From: Bacillota bacterium
GTDB lineage: Bacteria > Bacillota > Clostridia > TANB77 > CAG-508
Assembly (NCBI GenBank): GCA_963929525.1
Contig: CAWVJB010000020.1
Location: forward strand, 2,890 to 66,889
Length of the DNA stretch: 64,000 nt
Reading direction: 5' to 3'
The number at the start of each line of letters is the position of its first letter. Position 1 is the first letter of the stretch. The notes beneath the pieces are model-generated. The model was not told where the DNA came from. It did no database searches and saw only the letters and a program-made list of their open reading frames with translations. This document shows, piece by piece, positions 11,866 to 54,716 of this stretch. The translations under genes were made by a program, and so were the position numbers.

Positions 11866-11971
11866 GGTTGCCAAAGGGGACGGGTTAAATTGGCAACTTT
11901 TTAATTCAAAAAATTAATTATTTACGATAAATAACCAAAGTTGCCAATTTAACCCGTCCCCTTTGGCAACC
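11866..11971. repeat. Family B palindrome, copy 1
   Basis: Perfect 35-bp arms ggttgccaaaggggacgggttaaattggcaacttt with a 36-nt loop. Each arm is itself a hairpin (gttgccaa/ttggcaac) with GGGGACG in its loop. Confidence 0.9.
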
Positions 11972-21707: not shown

Positions 21708-21715
21708 AGGATAGA

Positions 21716-21910
21716 GATAATTTTGGGATGGACTCAATTTTCCATTTTTAAATTGAGAAATCTTAAAAATATAGAATATAAAGTCAATATACGATTTTGT
21801 ATAAGCTAAATTTGAATTTAAATACGCAAAATCGTTTTATTTTTATATTCTATATTTTTTATCTTAATGAAATTAGAAAAAAGGGAAAAATGAATTAGTT
21901 CAAAATTCTT
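21716..21910. repeat. Family E-related degenerate palindrome (mini version)
   Basis: Core cgattttgtataagctaaattt...aaatacgcaaaatcg is shared with 24690-24840 and 54400-54550. Nested arms aaaaatatagaatataaa / tttatattctatattttt. Confidence 0.65.
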
Positions 21911-23990: not shown

Positions 23991-24000
23991 AAAATGTTAA

Positions 24001-24257
24001 AGGTTGCCAAAGGGGACGGGTTAAAATGGCAACTTTTCAATTTTAAATTAAGAATGTTATTGATTAATAAGAAAGGCGTGCATTAACGAAATCAAAGATT
24101 TCGATGCACACATGTGAAGACTGCTTCGCAGTACTTCACGAATATAAGAAGCCTAACCTTGTTGTATACGGAAAAATCTACATAGGGTCAAGATAAAGGT
24201 CGATTTTTCCTATACAATAAAAAAGTTGCCATTTTAACCCGTCCCCTTTGGCAACCT
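24001..24257. repeat. Family B palindrome, copy 2 (arms enclosing other modules)
   Basis: Perfect 37-bp arms aggttgccaaaggggacgggttaaaatggcaactttt. Interior carries module R8 (24136-24209) and two GC-containing hairpins. TTAA on both flanks. Confidence 0.9.
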
Positions 24258-24278
24258 TTAATTGAAAAAGGAGAAAAC

Positions 24279-24593
24279 ATGGAAAATAGAAGATTTATAG
24301 AAATCGATGAAGAATTTATATGTGATAATTGCGGAAAAAAGGTTCCAAAACTAGGCTATTCTTGTAGAGACCATTGTCCATATTGTTTACATTCTAGACA
24401 TGTGGACAAAAATCCAGGAGATAGACAAGAAACTTGCCATGGGGATTTAGAGCCAGTTTCTTTAGAAATTGATGGAAAAAAAGGTTATGTGATTATTTAT
24501 AGATGTAAAACTTGTGGAGCAATTAGAAAAAATAAAGCAGCGAAAGATGATAACATGGATTTAATCATAGATTTAAGCAGTAAACAAATCTGA
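24279..24593 (+). CDS. RNHCP-domain protein
   Basis: CDNCG...RDHCPYCLHSRHVD...CKTCG cysteine pattern of the RNHCP family. Confidence 0.7.
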   Translation: MENRRFIEIDEEFICDNCGKKVPKLGYSCRDHCPYCLHSRHVDKNPGDRQETCHGDLEPVSLEIDGKKGYVIIYRCKTCGAIRKNKAAKDDNMDLIIDLSSKQI

Positions 24594-24939
24594 AACGTTG
24601 AGAACGTGCCAAATCGTTCCAAAATGTGCCAAAAGGGACAGACCTTAACCTATCCACCAAGGGGACTTGTGTTTATATAAAATCATTCACAATTTTGTAT
24701 AAGCTAAATTTTCATAGAATTCTAAAAGAAAAAGATGTATTCATGCACTCAGACCCTCTCGTAACGAGAGTACCGTGCAATTCGTACATCTTTTTCTTTA
24801 AGAATCTCTATATTCAAATTTAGATACGCAAAATCGATTCATTCTTTTATATAAACACAAGTCCCCTTGGTGGATAGGTTAAGGTCTGTCCCTTTTGGCA
24901 CATTTTGGAACGATTTGGCACGTCCCTAACGTTTCAGAT
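24588..24939. repeat. Family E palindrome, copy 1 (352 bp)
   Basis: Arms atctgaaacgtt.agggacgtgccaaatcgttccaaaatgtgccaaaagggacagaccttaacctatccaccaaggggacttgtgtttatataaaa and their complement. Centre ctctcg-taa-cgagag near 24763. Confidence 0.9.
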
Positions 24940-27405
24940 TTCTTTATTCAAATTTCCATTTGTATAATGGCTACCGTCAAACCTTTGATTATTAAGCACT
25001 CTGTGAATAATTTCATTGATTTCTTCAATGGTTTCATCCAAAACATCAATTCTTGCATAATCAACATTGAATTCTTTGGGATAAATAGAGGTGATCTTAC
25101 TATTAAAAATCGTTGTAACTGTTTGAATATTATCAGGTAAAATTCTAAAATTCATATGTAAACGGTCTTTTAATTCATAAATATTATTGGTAATACATCT
25201 TTGCTTACAAGTTGGATAACATTTATCGGTTTCACCTAAAAGACAATAATTCATATTTAATAATGGTGTTCTACCATAAACGATAATTTCATTTGGTAAT
25301 TCTGCACAATTACACAAATCATGAATCATTTTTCTATTTAATTCAGGAGATATGGTATATCGGCAAATTCCTAAATTTTTTAATTCATTGATTGTATGAG
25401 AGTTATATACATTAAAGGTGTAATTGGTAATTAATTCTAGGTTTGTATTAAGATTTGCAAAAAGTGTATGTAATAATTTTATATTACAAATATTTGAAAT
25501 GACAAATCCTTTAATATGATAATTACTTAAAGTGGTTTCTATATTACTAGATAATAGATTTTTATAATTTGATTTGATAATAGTTGGCATATAAATGTAT
25601 ATATTAAATTTATCATCCAGAATATGTAAAATTTCTTGATAATCTTTCATAGAAAAATATTTTAAAGGGATATATACATTTTCAATATCATGAAGTTGTG
25701 TATAATCAAAATCCTTATGCAAAATGTTTAATAATAAAGAAATTTTTGTCTTTTTGATAGAAGAAATAGGCTGTTCCAAATCTTCCTTTTTTACTAGCTT
25801 GTCGATTTCTTTAGTTTCTTTTTTACTTGCAAAGATATTTTTATTAATAATAGAAGAATTTCTTTTCATTGTTCTTATGGCATATAGTTCTACCATTTGT
25901 AAAATCGTTCTTCTTAAATCATTTAATGTACTTAACTTCGGAATAAATACATTATGATCTAATTCGATATCTAAAGTTTTAAAAGCATAAGGAGTAGAAC
26001 CAGTTTTTGAAAATTGTGATATCACTGTATTTTTATCTACTGGTCTGGTGATAGCTTTTAAAGGAAGAATATCACTAGTATATTGTATATTTAAATCTTT
26101 ATATAATTCCATATTACTAGCAGATGTTACTGTAATAGAAATCGGTTTATTTTCCTTAATCACAATATGGCAATTTAAAAGTACTTTTCGATTTTCCTTT
26201 GCACAACTATTTTGTGCCAAAAGATTTAATTTTTTAGAACTCATTTTGAAAATCTGATTTCCTAATTTGATATTTCCTTTCATCCTACCAATTACAACTG
26301 TTTGACCAATTTCTGTAAATTTAATATTTTTCATATTTGTATCCATTAATTCAGAAATGGTATAAGTTCCTTCTTCTTTTTCTAAAGAAATGGTATCACC
26401 AATACCGATAGGTTCATTTAATTTAACCGTAATATATCCTTTTTTGGCATTATATTTTTGAACTTTACCTAAGAATAATCCCATATTGTTTGGCTTTTCT
26501 TTAAAGACTAAATTTCGGTTAGCTTCATTGCTTAAGTGACCAGAAGAAGACATACCTCTATTAAACACTTGTAATAATTCTTTCTTATCATCTTCATCAA
26601 TGATATATTCATTATCAGACAAGGCTAAATCTATATATTTTCGATAAATTCTAGTAACCGTTGCTACATATTCAAGTGATTTCATACGTCCCTCTATTTT
26701 AAAAGACTTTACACCAGCTTGAATTAAATATGGAATAAATTCTAAACCGCATAAATCTCTTGTACTTAATAGATATCCTAAATTGATAGACTTTCCATTT
26801 TCTAATAATTCAAAAGGAAGTCTACAAGGACCTGCGCATTTTCCTCTATTTCCAGAACGTCCACCTAACATACTAGAAAATAGACATTGTCCAGAATAAG
26901 AAATACAAAGTGCTCCATGGATAAAGGTTTCTATTTCAATATTTGTATTTTTACAAATATAATCAATTTCATTAACAGAAAGTTCTCTTGCAAGAACAAC
27001 TCTTTTAAATCCTAGTTCTTGCAATTCTAAAGCTCCATTTAAATTATGGACAGTCATTTGTGTACTAGCATGAATTGGTAAATCAGGAAATGCTCTCATA
27101 AGAGCCATAGCCAATCCTAAATCTTGAACAATAATGGCATCAATTCCAAATTCATAAGCTTTTTTGGCTACATGCATAGCAGATTCAAATTCTGTATCTG
27201 TTACTAAAGTATTTAATGTTAAATGGGTTTTAACACCACGGAGTTTTGCATATTGAATGGCTTTTTCTAAATCTTCAAGAGAAAAATTGGTAGCAAAAGC
27301 TCGCGCACTAAACATATCGGCACCAAAATAAACACTGTTAGCACCATTTTGTACAGCAGCTTTTAAACATTCAAAATCACCAACAGGAGAAAGTAATTCT
27401 ACCAT
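24934..27405 (-). CDS. U32-family peptidase-like protein (long form with DUF3656-like C-terminal region)
   Basis: MVELLSPVGD...AVQNGANSVYFG...ARELS, a typical U32 N-terminal barrel; 823 aa. Confidence 0.85.
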   Translation of the reverse strand: MVELLSPVGDFECLKAAVQNGANSVYFGADMFSARAFATNFSLEDLEKAIQYAKLRGVKTHLTLNTLVTDTEFESAMHVAKKAYEFGIDAIIVQDLGLAMALMRAFPDLPIHASTQMTVHNLNGALELQELGFKRVVLARELSVNEIDYICKNTNIEIETFIHGALCISYSGQCLFSSMLGGRSGNRGKCAGPCRLPFELLENGKSINLGYLLSTRDLCGLEFIPYLIQAGVKSFKIEGRMKSLEYVATVTRIYRKYIDLALSDNEYIIDEDDKKELLQVFNRGMSSSGHLSNEANRNLVFKEKPNNMGLFLGKVQKYNAKKGYITVKLNEPIGIGDTISLEKEEGTYTISELMDTNMKNIKFTEIGQTVVIGRMKGNIKLGNQIFKMSSKKLNLLAQNSCAKENRKVLLNCHIVIKENKPISITVTSASNMELYKDLNIQYTSDILPLKAITRPVDKNTVISQFSKTGSTPYAFKTLDIELDHNVFIPKLSTLNDLRRTILQMVELYAIRTMKRNSSIINKNIFASKKETKEIDKLVKKEDLEQPISSIKKTKISLLLNILHKDFDYTQLHDIENVYIPLKYFSMKDYQEILHILDDKFNIYIYMPTIIKSNYKNLLSSNIETTLSNYHIKGFVISNICNIKLLHTLFANLNTNLELITNYTFNVYNSHTINELKNLGICRYTISPELNRKMIHDLCNCAELPNEIIVYGRTPLLNMNYCLLGETDKCYPTCKQRCITNNIYELKDRLHMNFRILPDNIQTVTTIFNSKITSIYPKEFNVDYARIDVLDETIEEINEIIHRVLNNQRFDGSHYTNGNLNKEI

Positions 27406-27623
27406 AATTTCACCACCTTTTTTGAGTTTGATACTATATATTATTTAAAAAAATCTTTTTTGAACCAATTTTACCTAATTATACCATAAAATACTTGGAA
27501 TTTCTAGGTTACATAAAGTTACAATAAAAAGTGGAAAATATTTTATTGCTTATGGTTAGATAAAATAGAATATTATTAGAACATTTAGGAATTTTTTAAT
27601 AGCATTATTTTACCTATAACAAA

Positions 27624-27711
27624 CAAAAATGTGATTTAAATAATAAAAATACTTGCAAAAATGTGATAAAAGCAATAAAAAACTTTGCAAAAATGTGATT
27701 ATATGGTATAA
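27624..27711 (+). promoter_or_regulatory. Three phased direct repeats ending in an extended -10 promoter
   Basis: caaaaatgtgat at 27624, 27656 and 27688 (exactly 32 bp apart). The last copy abuts tggtataat (27703-27711). Confidence 0.6.
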
Positions 27712-27755
27712 TGATAATAGATAATGTATATATTATAGATGGGAAGTGTTGCCAG

Positions 27756-29057
27756 ATGAAAAGATTTATAATGGAAAAATTAATAAAATGGAAAGATAGT
27801 AAATATAGAAAACCATTAATTTTAAAAGGTGCTAGACAAGTAGGAAAAACATATATTATAAAACAATTTGGAGAAGAAAATTATGAAGGCATTGCTTATT
27901 TCAACTTTGACCATGATGAAGATTTGCACAATTTGTTTGTCAATACAAAAGATCCCAAAAGAATACTAGAGCAATTAGCATTCATATATGGAAAAGCAAT
28001 ATTACCAGGAAAGACATTGATATTTTTTGATGAGATACAAGAATGTCCAGATGCTTTAAATAGTTTAAAATATTTTCAAGAAGAGGCAAATGAATATCAT
28101 ATTATTTGTGCAGGAAGTTTGTTGGGAATCAGATTATCACATACATCCTTTCCAGTTGGAAAAGTAGAATTTATGAATATGTATCCAATGTCTTTTAGTG
28201 AGTTTTTAATTGCTGATAATTGTGAAAACCTAGTTGACTACATGAAATCTATTACAAAAATTGAAAATATTCCAGAAATATTTTTTAATCAATTAGAGGA
28301 AAAATTAAAAGCATATTTTATTATTGGAGGAATGCCAGAAGCTGTGTATTCATGGGTAAATGAAAAAAATATGGAATTCGTAAATGCCATACAAGAAAAT
28401 ATATTAAAAGCCTATGAAAGTGATTTTTCAAAACATACGCAAAATCATGAAGCAAATAAGATTTCTTTAATATGGAATAGTATACCATCACAATTGGCAA
28501 AGGAAAACAAGAAGTTTTTATATCAAACCATAAAAGAGGGAGCACGTACAAGAGAATATGAAAGTGCTTTAAACTGGTTAAATGATGCGAATTTGATATA
28601 TAAAGTATATCATGTTAACAAGACAGATTTCCCATTAAAAGCATATCATGATTTAAGTTGTTTTAAAATCTATATGAATGATGTAGGATTACTTAGAAGA
28701 ATGGTGAATTTAGATAGTAGAATTGTGATAGAAGGAGATAAATTATTTGAAGAATTTAAAGGTGCTTTTACAGAAAATTATGTATTAAATATGCTAACAA
28801 TGCTTTACGAAGAAGTTCCAAATTATTTTACTTTTGATAGATATGAAATAGATTTTGTAATTCAAAATAGAAATAGAATAATACCAATAGAGGTAAAATC
28901 TAATAAGTTGACAAGTAATGCTAGTTTAACAAAATATAATGAAAAATTTAATAATAACATATCCATTAGACTATCAATGAATAATTTAAAAAAGGATGAT
29001 AAAATTTTAAATATACCATTATTTTTGATAGAATATATGGAGAATTTAATAGACTGA
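27756..29057 (+). CDS. AAA-family ATPase with DUF4143-like C-terminal domain
   Basis: Walker A GARQVGKT, FFDEIQ Walker B-like motif and a C-terminal restriction-endonuclease-like fold (EIDFVI...IPIEVKS). Confidence 0.8.
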   Translation: MKRFIMEKLIKWKDSKYRKPLILKGARQVGKTYIIKQFGEENYEGIAYFNFDHDEDLHNLFVNTKDPKRILEQLAFIYGKAILPGKTLIFFDEIQECPDALNSLKYFQEEANEYHIICAGSLLGIRLSHTSFPVGKVEFMNMYPMSFSEFLIADNCENLVDYMKSITKIENIPEIFFNQLEEKLKAYFIIGGMPEAVYSWVNEKNMEFVNAIQENILKAYESDFSKHTQNHEANKISLIWNSIPSQLAKENKKFLYQTIKEGARTREYESALNWLNDANLIYKVYHVNKTDFPLKAYHDLSCFKIYMNDVGLLRRMVNLDSRIVIEGDKLFEEFKGAFTENYVLNMLTMLYEEVPNYFTFDRYEIDFVIQNRNRIIPIEVKSNKLTSNASLTKYNEKFNNNISIRLSMNNLKKDDKILNIPLFLIEYMENLID

Positions 29058-29076
29058 ATATTATAAAAAAATAAGA

Positions 29077-29120
29077 AATAGAAAATCATGTTAGTCAATA
29101 TGTGATTTTCTATTTTTTTC
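29077..29120 (+). terminator. Intrinsic terminator
   Basis: Stem aaatagaaaatca / tgattttctattt followed by a T run. Confidence 0.7.
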
Positions 29121-29222
29121 ATTTTGTTCGCTTGAAATGTTAAAAAAATAGTATATAATAGAAACCATAGGAAAGAGAAAAACAGATGTGGTTTGCCTCC
29201 TACATAATAGGAGGTGATGCAT

Positions 29223-29345
29223 ATGATAGAAATAGAAACTTTATTATTGATTATAAAATTACTATTTGCTGGTCTAGTATCAATAACTATCATTACATTT
29301 ACCTTAATTCTAGCAATCGTTGTAATTATGAGTAAACATAAATAA
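29223..29345 (+). CDS. Candidate type I toxin, 40-aa hydrophobic peptide (holin-like toxin style); not in the ORF track
   Basis: MIEIETLLLIIKLLFAGLVSITIITFTLILAIVVIMSKHK. AGGAGG lies 8 nt upstream. Own promoter ttgaaa-N16-tataat (29132-29159). The SD is paired in a cctccta/taggagg hairpin (29196-29214). Confidence 0.5.
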   Translation: MIEIETLLLIIKLLFAGLVSITIITFTLILAIVVIMSKHK

Positions 29346-29351
29346 AATACA

Positions 29352-29438
29352 AAAAAACACACATCTGTATTTTGCCGAAAAAGATGTGTGTTTTTAACAC
29401 TTCACGAGGCAAACCACATAGTGGTTTCTCCTTCCTAT
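29352..29438 (-). ncRNA. Candidate antisense small RNA convergent with the toxin mRNA
   Basis: Minus-strand promoter ttgact-N16-tataat (29472-29445). The transcript would end at the shared terminator and overlap only the toxin 3' end. Confidence 0.3.
29353..29395. terminator. Bidirectional intrinsic terminator
   Basis: aaaaacacacatct-N15-agatgtgtgttttt with an A run on the left and a T run on the right. Confidence 0.75.
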
Positions 29439-29530
29439 ACAAATATTATATCATAAAAATAATAAAAGTCAATAAATTTAGATAATCCTGAAAAATGATA
29501 AAGAAGTTCAAAACAAAGGAGCAAAGATAC

Positions 29531-50421: not shown

Positions 50422-50494
50422 AAATACCCCTTTCTTATAAGACTAGTATCTACCAAACTAAAAAAACTTATACATTATTATATGATAAGAAAAG

Positions 50495-50740
50495 AAAAGT
50501 TGCCAAAGGGGACGTGTCATTTTGGCAACTTTTATAAAATAGATTCACGAATGTAAGAGGCGTAACCTTGTTGTATATGGAAAAATCCACATAGGGTTAA
50601 AATAAAAGTCGATTTTTCTTTTGAAAATAAAATATAAGAAATTTATTTTCACTTTGAGCCTAAGTAACTTAAAGTTTCATATTGTTTCCTATTCAATGAA
50701 AAAGAAAGTTGCCAAAATGGCACGTCCCCTTTGGCAACTT
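50495..50740. repeat. Family B palindrome, copy 3 (arms enclose G modules R8 + inverted R4)
   Basis: Arms aagttgccaaaggggacgtgtcattttggcaactt / aagttgccaaaatggcacgtcccctttggcaactt (one T.G mismatch). Interior 50544-50695 matches R8 and R4. Confidence 0.9.
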
Positions 50741-50743
50741 CTC

Positions 50744-52330
50744 TTAATAATAAATCATATAATCAATATCTGGAAAGACACAATCCTTTTTAGAAATGTC
50801 TTTTAAGAAATCTTCATCAATATGATTTTCTTTTATTTGATAATATAATTTTGTAAATCTACCAATGTGGTCTTTAATTCTTTTTTTAGCATAATCTACC
50901 ATGGTACCATTTGTGATGATAAATAGCCAATCACTACTTTGTGCTAATAATAATTCTCTAGCACATTGATTTAATGCTTTTTTCTTCAAGCCTTTTGCAT
51001 TTGGATATAAATGAGCAAGTTCACACATTCTATCACCTGCAACATGAAGATGTCTATGTACATAATCATTTGTTTGATTTAACCAAACTTCACTATATCC
51101 ATTAGCTCCCCAACTAGAACGACAAGGAGAAGCAACTTGCATGTTTGGATATTTATCAATATATTCAGATGGTGTAATTAATTCAAAATTACAATCATCA
51201 TAGTAGATTTTTTTAAATAATACATATAACCAATATGGTCCTTCATACCACCAATGACCATATAATTCAGCATCATAAGGGCACAATATAATTGGTGGAT
51301 TTTCTGTATATTGAGCAAGATTTCCAATTTGCGCATTTCGACAGTCAAAGAAGTGAGCAGCTTGTCTTTCTGCGGAATCTTTTGCCCATTGAAGATTGTA
51401 ATAATCTTTAAATTCTGTTTTTCCCGTAATTCTATAATATTTAATACCTGTATGAACTCTAACACCATTATGAGCGATATATGGTTTGATATAGTCATAA
51501 TCAGCATCATAACCAATATCACGGTAAAATTCTCTGTAATTAAAATCACCTGGGTAACCATTAATAGAACTCCATACTTGTCTTGAAGATTCTATGTCTC
51601 TACCAAAAGCAATCACACCTTCTGGGGAAACAATAGGAGCAAAGGTACCATATAATGGAGTAGGGTCTGCATATAGAATTCCGTGTGTTTCTGTAATAAT
51701 ATAATCAATGCCAAATTCTTTTAAGTATTTATCAGCTTCTGGAACATAACCGCATTCAGGTAGCCAAATACCACGAGGTTTTCTTCCGAAATATCTTTCA
51801 TATGTTTGTACACCAACAGCGATTTGTGCTTTTACGGTTTTTTCATTAACATATAGTATTGGGAAATATCCATGTGTTGCTCCACAAGTGATAATTTCTA
51901 ATACGCCAATATCTTGAAAATGTTTAAAACCTTGAATCAGATTACATTTATAAACATCTTTAAATAAATGTAAATCATTTGAATATCTATCATAATAGTA
52001 ATGTGCTAATTGATTTAAACGCTCATTACCAGCAGTTCTTTTGATTTCTTTTCCAGATAATTCAATCATTTGTTTTAAATAGCGAATATATTTCTTTTGT
52101 AATAATTTGTTATCCAACATAGAAAGTAGAGGAGGGGTCATAGACATAGTAATTCTAAAATGAACGCCTTCATCTACTAATTTTTGAAAATTTGTTAATA
52201 ATGGTATATAAGTTTCAGATATTGCTTCATATAGCCAAGATTCCTCTAGATAATCATCACTTTCTGGATGATGAATAAATGGAAGATGTGCATGAAGAAC
52301 GAAACTAACATAACCTTTTTTTTCTTGCAT
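50744..52330 (-). CDS. GH57-family 1,4-alpha-glucan branching enzyme-like protein
   Basis: MQEKKGYVSFVLHAHLPFIHHPE... is a GH57/DUF1957 pattern. ATG 52330 follows AAAGGAG. Confidence 0.85.
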   Translation of the reverse strand: MQEKKGYVSFVLHAHLPFIHHPESDDYLEESWLYEAISETYIPLLTNFQKLVDEGVHFRITMSMTPPLLSMLDNKLLQKKYIRYLKQMIELSGKEIKRTAGNERLNQLAHYYYDRYSNDLHLFKDVYKCNLIQGFKHFQDIGVLEIITCGATHGYFPILYVNEKTVKAQIAVGVQTYERYFGRKPRGIWLPECGYVPEADKYLKEFGIDYIITETHGILYADPTPLYGTFAPIVSPEGVIAFGRDIESSRQVWSSINGYPGDFNYREFYRDIGYDADYDYIKPYIAHNGVRVHTGIKYYRITGKTEFKDYYNLQWAKDSAERQAAHFFDCRNAQIGNLAQYTENPPIILCPYDAELYGHWWYEGPYWLYVLFKKIYYDDCNFELITPSEYIDKYPNMQVASPCRSSWGANGYSEVWLNQTNDYVHRHLHVAGDRMCELAHLYPNAKGLKKKALNQCARELLLAQSSDWLFIITNGTMVDYAKKRIKDHIGRFTKLYYQIKENHIDEDFLKDISKKDCVFPDIDYMIYY

Positions 52331-53858: not shown

Positions 53859-54305
53859 ATGGTAGAAAAAAATAATAAATTAACAATAAGAGTGGCAGGC
53901 ATTGTACCCGTGGATAATGGATTTATATTTATGCATAGAAAAAAAGTAAAAAGGAATAAGGATTATGAGGAATACTATACTTTCCCAGGAGGACATTTAG
54001 AAAATGGCGAAACATTAGAAGAAGGAGTTATCAGAGAAATTAAAGAAGAATTCGGTATAAAGGTAAAAGTAATAAAGAAATTATATGAATTAGAAAATAA
54101 TAAATTGAATATGAAAGAATATTTCTTTTTATGTGAATATATAGAAGGAAAATTTGGAACAGGAGATGGAGAAGAATTTTTCAATAATCCAGAATATAAA
54201 GATTCTGGTGAATATATTCCAGAAATTATGAAAAAAGAAGACATATCAAAAATTGTGTTATTACCACCAGAAATAAAAGAAAAGTTTTTAAAAGATTTCT
54301 GTTAG
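53859..54305 (+). CDS. NUDIX hydrolase
   Basis: GGHLENGETLEEGVIREIKEEFG Nudix box. ATG 53859 follows GGAGGG. Confidence 0.8.
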   Translation: MVEKNNKLTIRVAGIVPVDNGFIFMHRKKVKRNKDYEEYYTFPGGHLENGETLEEGVIREIKEEFGIKVKVIKKLYELENNKLNMKEYFFLCEYIEGKFGTGDGEEFFNNPEYKDSGEYIPEIMKKEDISKIVLLPPEIKEKFLKDFC

Positions 54306-54637
54306 GGACGTGCCAAATCGTTTCAAAATGAGCCCAAAAGGGACAGACCTTAACCTTTTCGTTCCAAAGGAACCTGTAGTTATATAAAGTCACTCACGAT
54401 TTTGTATAAGCTAAATTTTCATAGAATTCTAAAATAAAAAAAATGTATTCATGCACTCAGACCCTCTCATAACGAGAGTACCGTGCAATTCATACATTTT
54501 TTTATTTAAGAATTTCTACATTCAAATTTAGATACGCAAAATCGATTCGTTTTTTATATAACTACAGATCCCTTTGGAACGAAAAGGTTAAGGTCTGTCT
54601 CTTTTGGGCTCATTTTGAAATGATTTGACACGTCCTC
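54302..54637. repeat. Family E palindrome, copy 2 (336 bp)
   Basis: ttagggacgtgccaaatcgtttcaaaatgagcccaaaagggacagaccttaacc... and its complement. The central ~150 bp is nearly identical to copy 1. Confidence 0.9.
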
Positions 54638-54716
54638 AAAAAACAAAAAAAAAATCAAAAATTTGTTTGACATTTTTTTGTTTGTATGATATGATGAGAC
54701 AAAATAGGAGAATGGA

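Follow-up and report, generated by a model that had tools for sequence, protein, structure and literature searches.

Compensatory change in the arms of long stems is usually read as proof of selection for RNA structure. Concerted evolution of the arms of bacterial inverted repeats through template switching has been argued by Lavi et al. (PMC5941160), and such concerted evolution is known to result from template switching as well as from recombination (PMC5941160, PMC8794818, PMC5453318). Mönttinen and Löytynoja (PMC8794818) show that one template-switch event can both build and repair a stem, and they regard inversion of the loop as the strongest sign that a switch between strands has occurred. 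Compensatory changes are also common in the hairpins of the REPIN repeats (PMC3116915). Reported here is family E, a palindromic repeat of 330–340 nt present in two copies, E1 and E2, in a 64,000-nt stretch (the window, 28% G+C) of contig CAWVJB010000020.1, assembly GCA_963929525.1, from an uncultured spore-forming Clostridia lineage. Family E is new, an unusually long and modular variant of known palindromic repeats, and provides a natural case, anchored by orthology, in which arm covariation probably arises from copying of one arm into the other at the DNA level and not from RNA selection. This is because the arms change at a neutral rate yet stay paired, because mirrored changes occur that have no stepwise route, and because sister hairpins show inverted centres.

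The two copies in the window and their parts are as follows.

24594–24933, no strand assigned: E1, whole element (AACGTT...AACGTT), supported by its fold and by orthologous copies in L013 and L019

24594–24682, plus strand: left arm of E1, with the REP-like outer unit, the conserved GGGACAGACC segment, the variable block (24651–24682) and then TTATATAAAA

24683–24844, plus strand: core of E1 (type 1), 0–1 differences per 162 nt among E1, L014 and L015

24845–24933, minus strand: right arm of E1, which mirrors the left arm; variable block 24845–24876

54301–54635, no strand assigned: E2, whole element, supported by its fold and by a site that is empty in L039 and L040

54306–54388, plus strand: left arm of E2; variable block 54356–54388

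54389–54552, plus strand: core of E2 (type 2), 3 differences in 163 from L013 and L016, 13 from E1

54553–54635, minus strand: right arm of E2; variable block 54553–54585, 2 mismatches to the left arm

Each copy folds as a single near-continuous hairpin, with −219 kcal/mol (z = −31) for E1 and −176 kcal/mol (z = −21) for E2. The E1 inverted repeat (24581–24682 / 24845–24946) has arms of 102 nt that are 96% complementary around a spacer of 162 nt, and that of E2 has arms of 83 nt, 94% complementary, with a spacer of 164 nt. The 16-mer GGGACAGACCTTAACC occurs four times in the window, once with 1 mismatch, where the expected number is 0. A scan of species-representative genomes with a 22-mer from the core gave four further copies in three metagenome-assembled genomes annotated as 'uncultured Eubacteriales' (L013–L016); a fifth match, inside an Oceanobacillus ATPase gene, is a chance match. 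Orthologous sites were found by look-ups of the neighbouring proteins. The total is seven copies at five sites in five genomes.

A sequence-only reading of the window had proposed that E1 and E2 differ by block substitutions mirrored in both arms. The strings it quoted are all found in place, at 24651, 24845, 54356 and 54553, and complementarity of the arms is indeed kept within each copy (32 of 32 positions in the E1 block, 2 mismatches in 33 in the E2 block). The mirrored differences between the copies are also real, but they affect about 38% of the block (10 substitutions and 3 gap columns in 34) and not about half of it. The blocks are homologous and have diverged by point changes and a mirrored 2-nt indel, thus the term block substitution is too strong for E1 and E2; a true mirrored block replacement is found in L019 instead.

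The covariation test suggested by that reading places the mirrored pattern far beyond chance. In an alignment of six copies with 144 stem pairs, 97.3% of the cells pair. Changes on both sides are present in 26 of the 144 pairs, compared with 12.5 ± 2.3 in 500 shuffles, and in 44 cells compared with 15.4 ± 3.0; none of the 500 shuffles reaches the observed value in either count. When the partner is slid by 1–3 columns, six doubly changed pairs at most remain. Nor do arm mismatches accumulate at the rate of divergence between copies: left and right arms within a copy show 3, 8, 5, 3, 3 and 8 differences per ~85 nt in the six copies (mean 5.0), whereas arms of different copies show 8–22 (means 14–15). 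The L019 arms are perfect over 79 nt. Asymmetric changes are present as well, with 28 single-arm cells versus 41 mirrored cells.

Four-fold degenerate sites of the neighbouring genes give a measure of neutral divergence. Divergence from the window at these sites of the peptidase U32 gene is 21% for L013 and 18% for L019, and in lexA it is 21–25% for L039 and L040. The arms of E1 and of its positional orthologue in L013 differ by 16–19%, and each copy is still 94–96% paired. With 16–19% in the arms against 21% at four-fold sites, the arms drift about neutrally and yet remain paired. Long-read assemblies (contig_5816 and tig00055708) match the short-read sequences of family E, therefore the symmetry of the arms is not an assembler artefact and a De Bruijn collapse of the arms is excluded.

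The kinds of change found in the arms bear on how the symmetry is kept. Approximately 7 of 21 mirrored substitution events are transversions, e.g. U-A to A-U or G-C, for which no route through a G.U intermediate exists. Adjacent double changes are mirrored (AC to GT), as are two indels, one of 1 nt (ATGT-GCC / ATGATACC / ATGAGCCC) and one of 2 nt (GTT / AAC). In the element at the E1 site of L019 the 28-nt block has given way to a non-homologous 17-nt sequence, TGCAAGAAGTACCACTA, which is matched at 17 of 17 positions by its mirror TAGTGGTACTTCTTGCA in the other arm; the boundaries of the replacement are mirrored too. The central module of L019 also differs from that of E1. No source or other copy of the 17-nt block is present in any sequence compared.

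Two other, unrelated hairpins at the E1 site, between the RNHCP and peptidase U32 genes, show inverted centres in contigs of the same species. L032:1932–2058 and L033:1932–2058 are identical at 126 of 127 positions in inverted orientation and at 37 of 127 in direct orientation, and the centres at L025:2875–2899 and L026:1082–1106 are inverted with 25 of 25 identities. The arms around these inversions are 37–48 nt, which is shorter than the largest k-mer assumed for SPAdes-type assemblies; the inversions are therefore probably real and would represent flip-flop isomers or template-switch loop inversions.

Family E elements abut or overlap a stop codon at all five sites, and their orientation relative to the upstream gene varies among sites. 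E1 occupies the whole gap between the convergent stop codons of RNHCP (TGA, 24591–24593) and peptidase U32 (24934–24936, minus strand). L013 shares synteny with the window around E1 and has an element at the same site, and L019, with an RNHCP that is 97% identical, carries a variant element there. E is absent from this site in L020 and L028. L020–L023 show only a 58-nt hairpin, AAAAGGACAGATTTATATAAAC...GTTATATAATCTGTCC, which in L020:2250–2307 reads AAAAGGACAGA+TTTATATAAAC...GTTATATAA+TCTGTCC; as it joins two motifs that are split by the variable block in E, it is a remnant or a precursor of E. Species farther away have unrelated hairpins of 60 to ~230 nt at this position. A region of ~2 kb with an AAA_14/DUF4143 ATPase gene (window 27547–29510; gene 27711–29057) is missing from the syntenic L013 region.

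The E1 palindrome runs on into the flanks (AAACAAATCTGA / TCAGATTTCTTT). A reading of this as flank DNA copied into the palindrome was rejected, because the flanks are the native gene ends (KQI-stop and KEI-stop) and are found in many homologues and in L020, which has no E. Both RNHCP and U32 end K-(Q/E)-I-stop (window 24582–24593 and 24934–24945; L020:2238–2249 and 2308–2319), thus the two convergent genes have 3′ ends that make an inverted repeat whether E is there or not. Synonymous variation of the Ile codon runs in parallel at the two ends: L020 has ATT/ATT, and the window, L013 and L019 have ATC/ATC.

At the E2 site, between the NUDIX and lexA genes, the NUDIX stop codon (TAG, 54303–54305) lies inside the left terminus of E2, GTTAGGGACG, and the window NUDIX protein ends ...KDFC-stop. 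The site is empty in L039 and L040, where the NUDIX proteins end ...KDLRERIF-stop and ...LDLEKGNL-stop. Comparison of filled and empty sites shows that ~34 nt of the empty-site sequence is replaced. A role of E2 as a LexA box or in the lexA promoter was rejected; the promoter at 54667–54695 falls outside the element.

The consensus terminus of family E is approximately TGRAACGTTAGGGACG. Both ends carry an outer unit, in inverted orientation, consisting of a REP-like AACG-TTAGGGACGTG(T/C)CAAAT-CGTT sequence, which belongs to the GGGGACG hairpin superfamily described below. Inward from this unit follow a conserved stretch ending AAAAGGGACAG(AC/GT)C, the variable block of ~28 nt, TTATATAAA and the 162-nt core, so that ~60 nt of arm separates each REP-like unit from the core. 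A GGGACGTGTCA loop is common to the outer units of E and to REP-like units at 50492–50745. The core is an asymmetric, imperfect palindrome (GATTTTGTATAAGCTAAATTT / AAATTTAGATACGCAAAATCG in E1) around a central A-tract, a GC-rich stem-loop and a T-tract. Its halves differ at many fixed positions, e.g. CGATTTTG-TATAAGC-TAAATTT opposite AAATTTA-GATACGC-AAAATCG, and this left/right asymmetry is identical in all seven copies. A small coding open reading frame within E was considered and rejected, as the frame is broken by indels in the arms. A retron, a CRISPR array and a plasmid single-strand origin were likewise rejected, there being no partner genes or motifs.

Two core haplotypes are found (window 24683–24844 and 54389–54552; L013–L016), type 1 in E1, L014 and L015 and type 2 in E2, L013 and L016, which are 12–14 of 162 sites apart. 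Within one haplotype there are 0–3 differences, even across loci and across species that are ~20% apart at four-fold sites. The arms that flank these cores differ by 10–15%. The constancy of the core may reflect very strong constraint or, alternatively, a recent spread of the element with fast-changing arms. By eye the layout is terminator-like: the core reads AAAAGAAAAAGATGTA...TACATCTTTTTCTTT around GC-rich stems, with an A-tract and a T-tract on both strands, and the different core of L019 keeps the order of A-tract, hairpin and T-tract. From its sequence the core would thus resemble a bidirectional terminator.

Copies of E appear to exchange segments. All four combinations of core type and the mirrored GACC/GGTC marker occur, and the core at the E1 site is of type 1 in the window but of type 2 in L013. 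Copies therefore recombine with or overwrite each other. Neither this mosaic structure nor the asymmetric, strongly conserved and never homogenised spacer had been recognised in the sequence-only reading. At the strain level E1 is invariant in 8 contigs, and of 10 contigs with E2, 2 have a G>A change at 54608. Three metagenome contigs (L007:1–350, L009:1–75 and L010:1–75; junction at ~54337) have an IS3-family element inserted in the E2 left arm. Where the NUDIX gene and the leftmost 31 nt of E2 would lie, these contigs show the end of the IS3-family element, with a transposase C-terminus ...NNKRIKSKLKGMSPVQYRVHSKVA-stop.

Parts of family E are also present in a second family, F, of which the window holds one degenerate copy:

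21715–21895, no strand assigned: degenerate family F copy, inner module CGATTTTGTATAAGCTAAATTT...AAATACGCAAAATCG shared with E, outer shells different

The copy has a predicted fold of −52 kcal/mol and its well-preserved relative, L014:7050–7262, one of −91 kcal/mol. The inner module of F is that of E without the central insert. As it is found in different outer shells, modules are common to both families.

The window contains 15 occurrences of the motif GGGGACG, against an expected 0.30, nearly always in loops or arms of intergenic hairpins (11876–11961, 18961, 21931, 24012/24240, 34364, 38116, 42707/42789, 43671/43760, 50508/50723 and 59994). Several occurrences form inverted doublets, as in REPINs, and several lie just past stop codons (glyQS, polC, ABC transporter). 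These hairpins have the look of a REP-like superfamily, so far undescribed, of this Clostridia lineage. A 265-nt element at 23997–24261 is bounded by inverted GGTTGCCAAAGGGGACGGGTTAAAATGGCAAC, and L013:1750–1806 has a single REP-like hairpin instead; a second hairpin family is thus polymorphic for presence and absence. The REP-bounded elements at 23997–24261 and 50492–50745 share an internal segment of ~80 nt (~24155–24235 and ~50545–50625), which reads TTCACGAATrTAAGArGCsTAACCTTGTTGTATAyGGAAAAATCyACATAGGGTyAArATAAArGTCGATTTTTC.

Scans of other collections gave no further family members. A scan of metagenome contigs with the core 22-mer gave only a chance match in a tandem repeat. Viral scans gave two matches, both by chance, with the arm 16-mer, 51 matches with the inner-module 20-mer that all fall in one conserved phage coding region without a hairpin, and no match with the partner 21-mer. 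Plasmid and phage records show no similarity to family E.

The explanation that we favour, with about an even chance of being right as a whole, is that E is a palindromic repeat, non-autonomous and low in copy number, of the REPIN or MITE (miniature transposable element with inverted repeats) type, with arms homogenised by template switching or conversion and with selection keeping the duplex. A difference arising in one arm would be copied into the other at the DNA level, either by template switching during replication of the quasi-palindrome or by gene conversion between the inverted arms of one element. Copies losing their pairing would be removed by selection for a long duplex, and copies would swap segments with each other to give mosaics. 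The core would be held constant by purifying selection, probably as the functional part, as a bidirectional terminator, a 3′-end hairpin or the recognition site of a mobilising factor; its many mismatches between left and right halves would block arm-to-arm copying there. The most economical view assigns the origin of mirrored variants and the repair of the arms to templated events, and the upkeep of duplex and core to selection.

A hitherto undescribed REPIN-like system, in which the heritable unit is one arm plus the core, the core being recognised by a putative single-strand DNA enzyme and the second arm regenerated, appears rather unlikely. With such a unit whole blocks could be swapped and would be mirrored at once. 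If true, this would explain cores that are near identical across species 20% apart at neutral sites and flanked by arms 10–15% apart.

The sequence-only reading had listed regeneration of one arm from the other, intra-element conversion and selection for a long duplex without choosing among them. The evidence leans toward the two DNA-templated options; copying of arms at the DNA level is preferred, and selection by itself is considered less likely. If E were a structured RNA or the hairpin of an RNA 3′ end, the mirrored changes would be two-step compensations under selection for RNA pairing. The strong covariation agrees with such a role, as do a conserved asymmetric core with internal loops that is common to two families, variable positions confined to blocks between invariant stretches, and a position that is always in a 3′ untranslated region. 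In addition, 17 of 19 single-arm differences are transitions, i.e. wobble-type mismatches, which favours some role for selection. But wobble intermediates cannot yield mirrored transversions, mirrored indels or the non-homologous block of L019. Mismatches confined to one arm are equally frequent as G.T and A.C on the plus strand (11 and 9), a split that gives preference to neither RNA strand; E1 is read from both sides, and the orientation of the element to the upstream gene is inconstant. Selection on any one pair of a ~140-bp helix should be very weak, to the point of being negligible. Rfam gave no match at gathering score, and a permissive search gave only sub-threshold plant miRNA precursor hairpins. 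An RNA role as the whole explanation is thus judged unlikely, though of some weight. A different account places the symmetry at the birth of each copy, in that a new copy would consist of one arm and the core, with the second arm made by fold-back copying during transposition, followed by independent decay and overwriting. The perfect 79-nt arms of L019, with its novel block included, would fit, and so would the different core types at one orthologous site, which suggest overwriting, and the decay seen between the well-preserved and degenerate copies of family F. REPINs are also described as having an asymmetric single-stranded intermediate, with a symmetry that needs to be re-established (PMC3116915). 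E1, however, has been at its site in three species and is among the most symmetric copies (3 differences in 83), and asymmetry does not follow apparent age. No transposase or intermediate is seen among the window open reading frames scanned or the genes at the loci, and with only 1–2 copies per genome the turnover would need to be site-directed. This account, too, appears rather improbable.

Successive insertion of small palindromes, each into the loop of the previous one, would make the mirrored blocks nested elements that are reshuffled between paralogues. Consistent with this, the inner module is found in two families with and without the central insert, the central modules of E1 and L019 differ but both show an A-tract, a hairpin and a T-tract, and L020 retains only GGACAGA and TTATATAAA at the E1 site; the IS3-family insertion in the E2 arm of some strains shows that these hairpins are insertion targets. 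The variable block, however, lies between two conserved shells on both sides, an arrangement that one insertion cannot create. The mirrored point changes and indels inside the shell are unexplained by nesting, and the 17-nt block of L019 has no second copy among the sequences compared. Nested insertion is accordingly unlikely. An inverton, with E flipped by a site-specific recombinase acting on the arms, would account for the inverted centres of the sister hairpins. But the orientation of E is constant in 3 species and 18 strain-level contigs, the core has no promoter-like site, there is no recombinase gene nearby, and arms of 83–102 nt far exceed the sites of invertases, which leaves this possibility with almost no credit.

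Several observations weigh against the favoured explanation of templated arms and selected duplex. The mirrored changes are concentrated in a small number of hypervariable blocks next to stretches without change, and a structured RNA under selection, or a hairpin bound by protein, would look no different. The asymmetry of the core is homogenised in no copy, thus templating is not indiscriminate. Inversion of the centre is not seen in E itself across the 3 species and 18 strain-level contigs, and no event is caught in progress, the sole strain-level change in E2 (54608 G>A) being unmirrored. Exchange between copies weakens a strict 'in situ' reading of the E1/L013 pair; these may not be strict orthologues, as they have cores of different types, and some of the apparent 'in situ' co-evolution may be overwriting by paralogues. 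As to mobility of the MITE type, there is no target-site duplication in the comparison of filled and empty E2 sites and the E1 flanks are native gene ends, and no transposase or RAYT gene is found among 10 window open reading frames scanned or the genes called at the loci. A simple consensus scan of the element reports no canonical terminator, so that a terminator role of the core is tentative. The collection is limited to seven family E copies.

The example of E advises caution, in that covariation in palindromic repeats is not in itself evidence of a functional RNA. With ~340 nt, one or two copies and empty sites available, the element is tractable for measuring template switching and arm conversion in Firmicutes. 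The locus also draws attention to the GGGGACG REP-like superfamily and to a strongly conserved 162-nt core in an uncultured Clostridia group. If the core were the recognition site of a new system of single-strand DNA mobilisation, the finding would gain weight.

The mirrored evolution of the arms is an instance of a documented process, and E shares features with several described systems. As in the large palindromes of the chloroplast inverted repeat and the Y chromosome (cited in PMC5941160), the arms evolve in concert, with a flip-flop of the spacer as a by-product; the arms there extend over kilobases and rely on homologous recombination. Efficient RecA-type recombination usually needs a minimum length that arms of 37–100 nt barely reach or fall short of.

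Long-hairpin MITEs such as ERIC, Correia, RUP and Nezha (PMC3184786) are likewise non-autonomous and intergenic, have terminal inverted repeats, show presence/absence polymorphism, insert by gene ends or within them and are able to provide a stop codon. E differs from these in having no target-site duplication and in inverted repeats that are much longer and are variable rather than conserved. No parent autonomous insertion sequence with the ends of E is found in the window, and the IS3-family end in L007 has unrelated termini.

E resembles REPINs (Bertels & Rainey 2011, PMC3116915) in that its ends are two inverted REP-like units that fold as one long hairpin, in its extragenic position by gene ends, in compensatory changes on both sides and in a REP signature, here GGGGACG, that is over-represented in the window. 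In contrast to REPINs of ~70–110 nt with tens to hundreds of copies, E has 330–340 nt, a 162-nt conserved asymmetric core and 1–2 copies per genome, and its host belongs to the Clostridia. REPINs are mobilised by RAYT transposases, whereas the window and locus genes of E include none among those scanned.

The nearest likeness in process is to quasi-palindrome correction (Ripley 1982; Lovett; PMC5941160, PMC8794818, PMC5453318), in which several bases or an indel are copied between arms in one step, arms are perfected, loops or centres are inverted, and the arms of inverted repeats evolve in concert at orthologous loci. The footprint of template switching is present here as mirrored multi-base and indel changes in E and as centre inversions in the L025/L026 and L032/L033 hairpins. 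The arms described for this process are mostly 5–30 nt, from E. coli, rRNA stems and human polymorphisms, whereas those of E are 80–100 nt, belong to a dispersed repeat, drift at the neutral rate and show replacement of a whole block.

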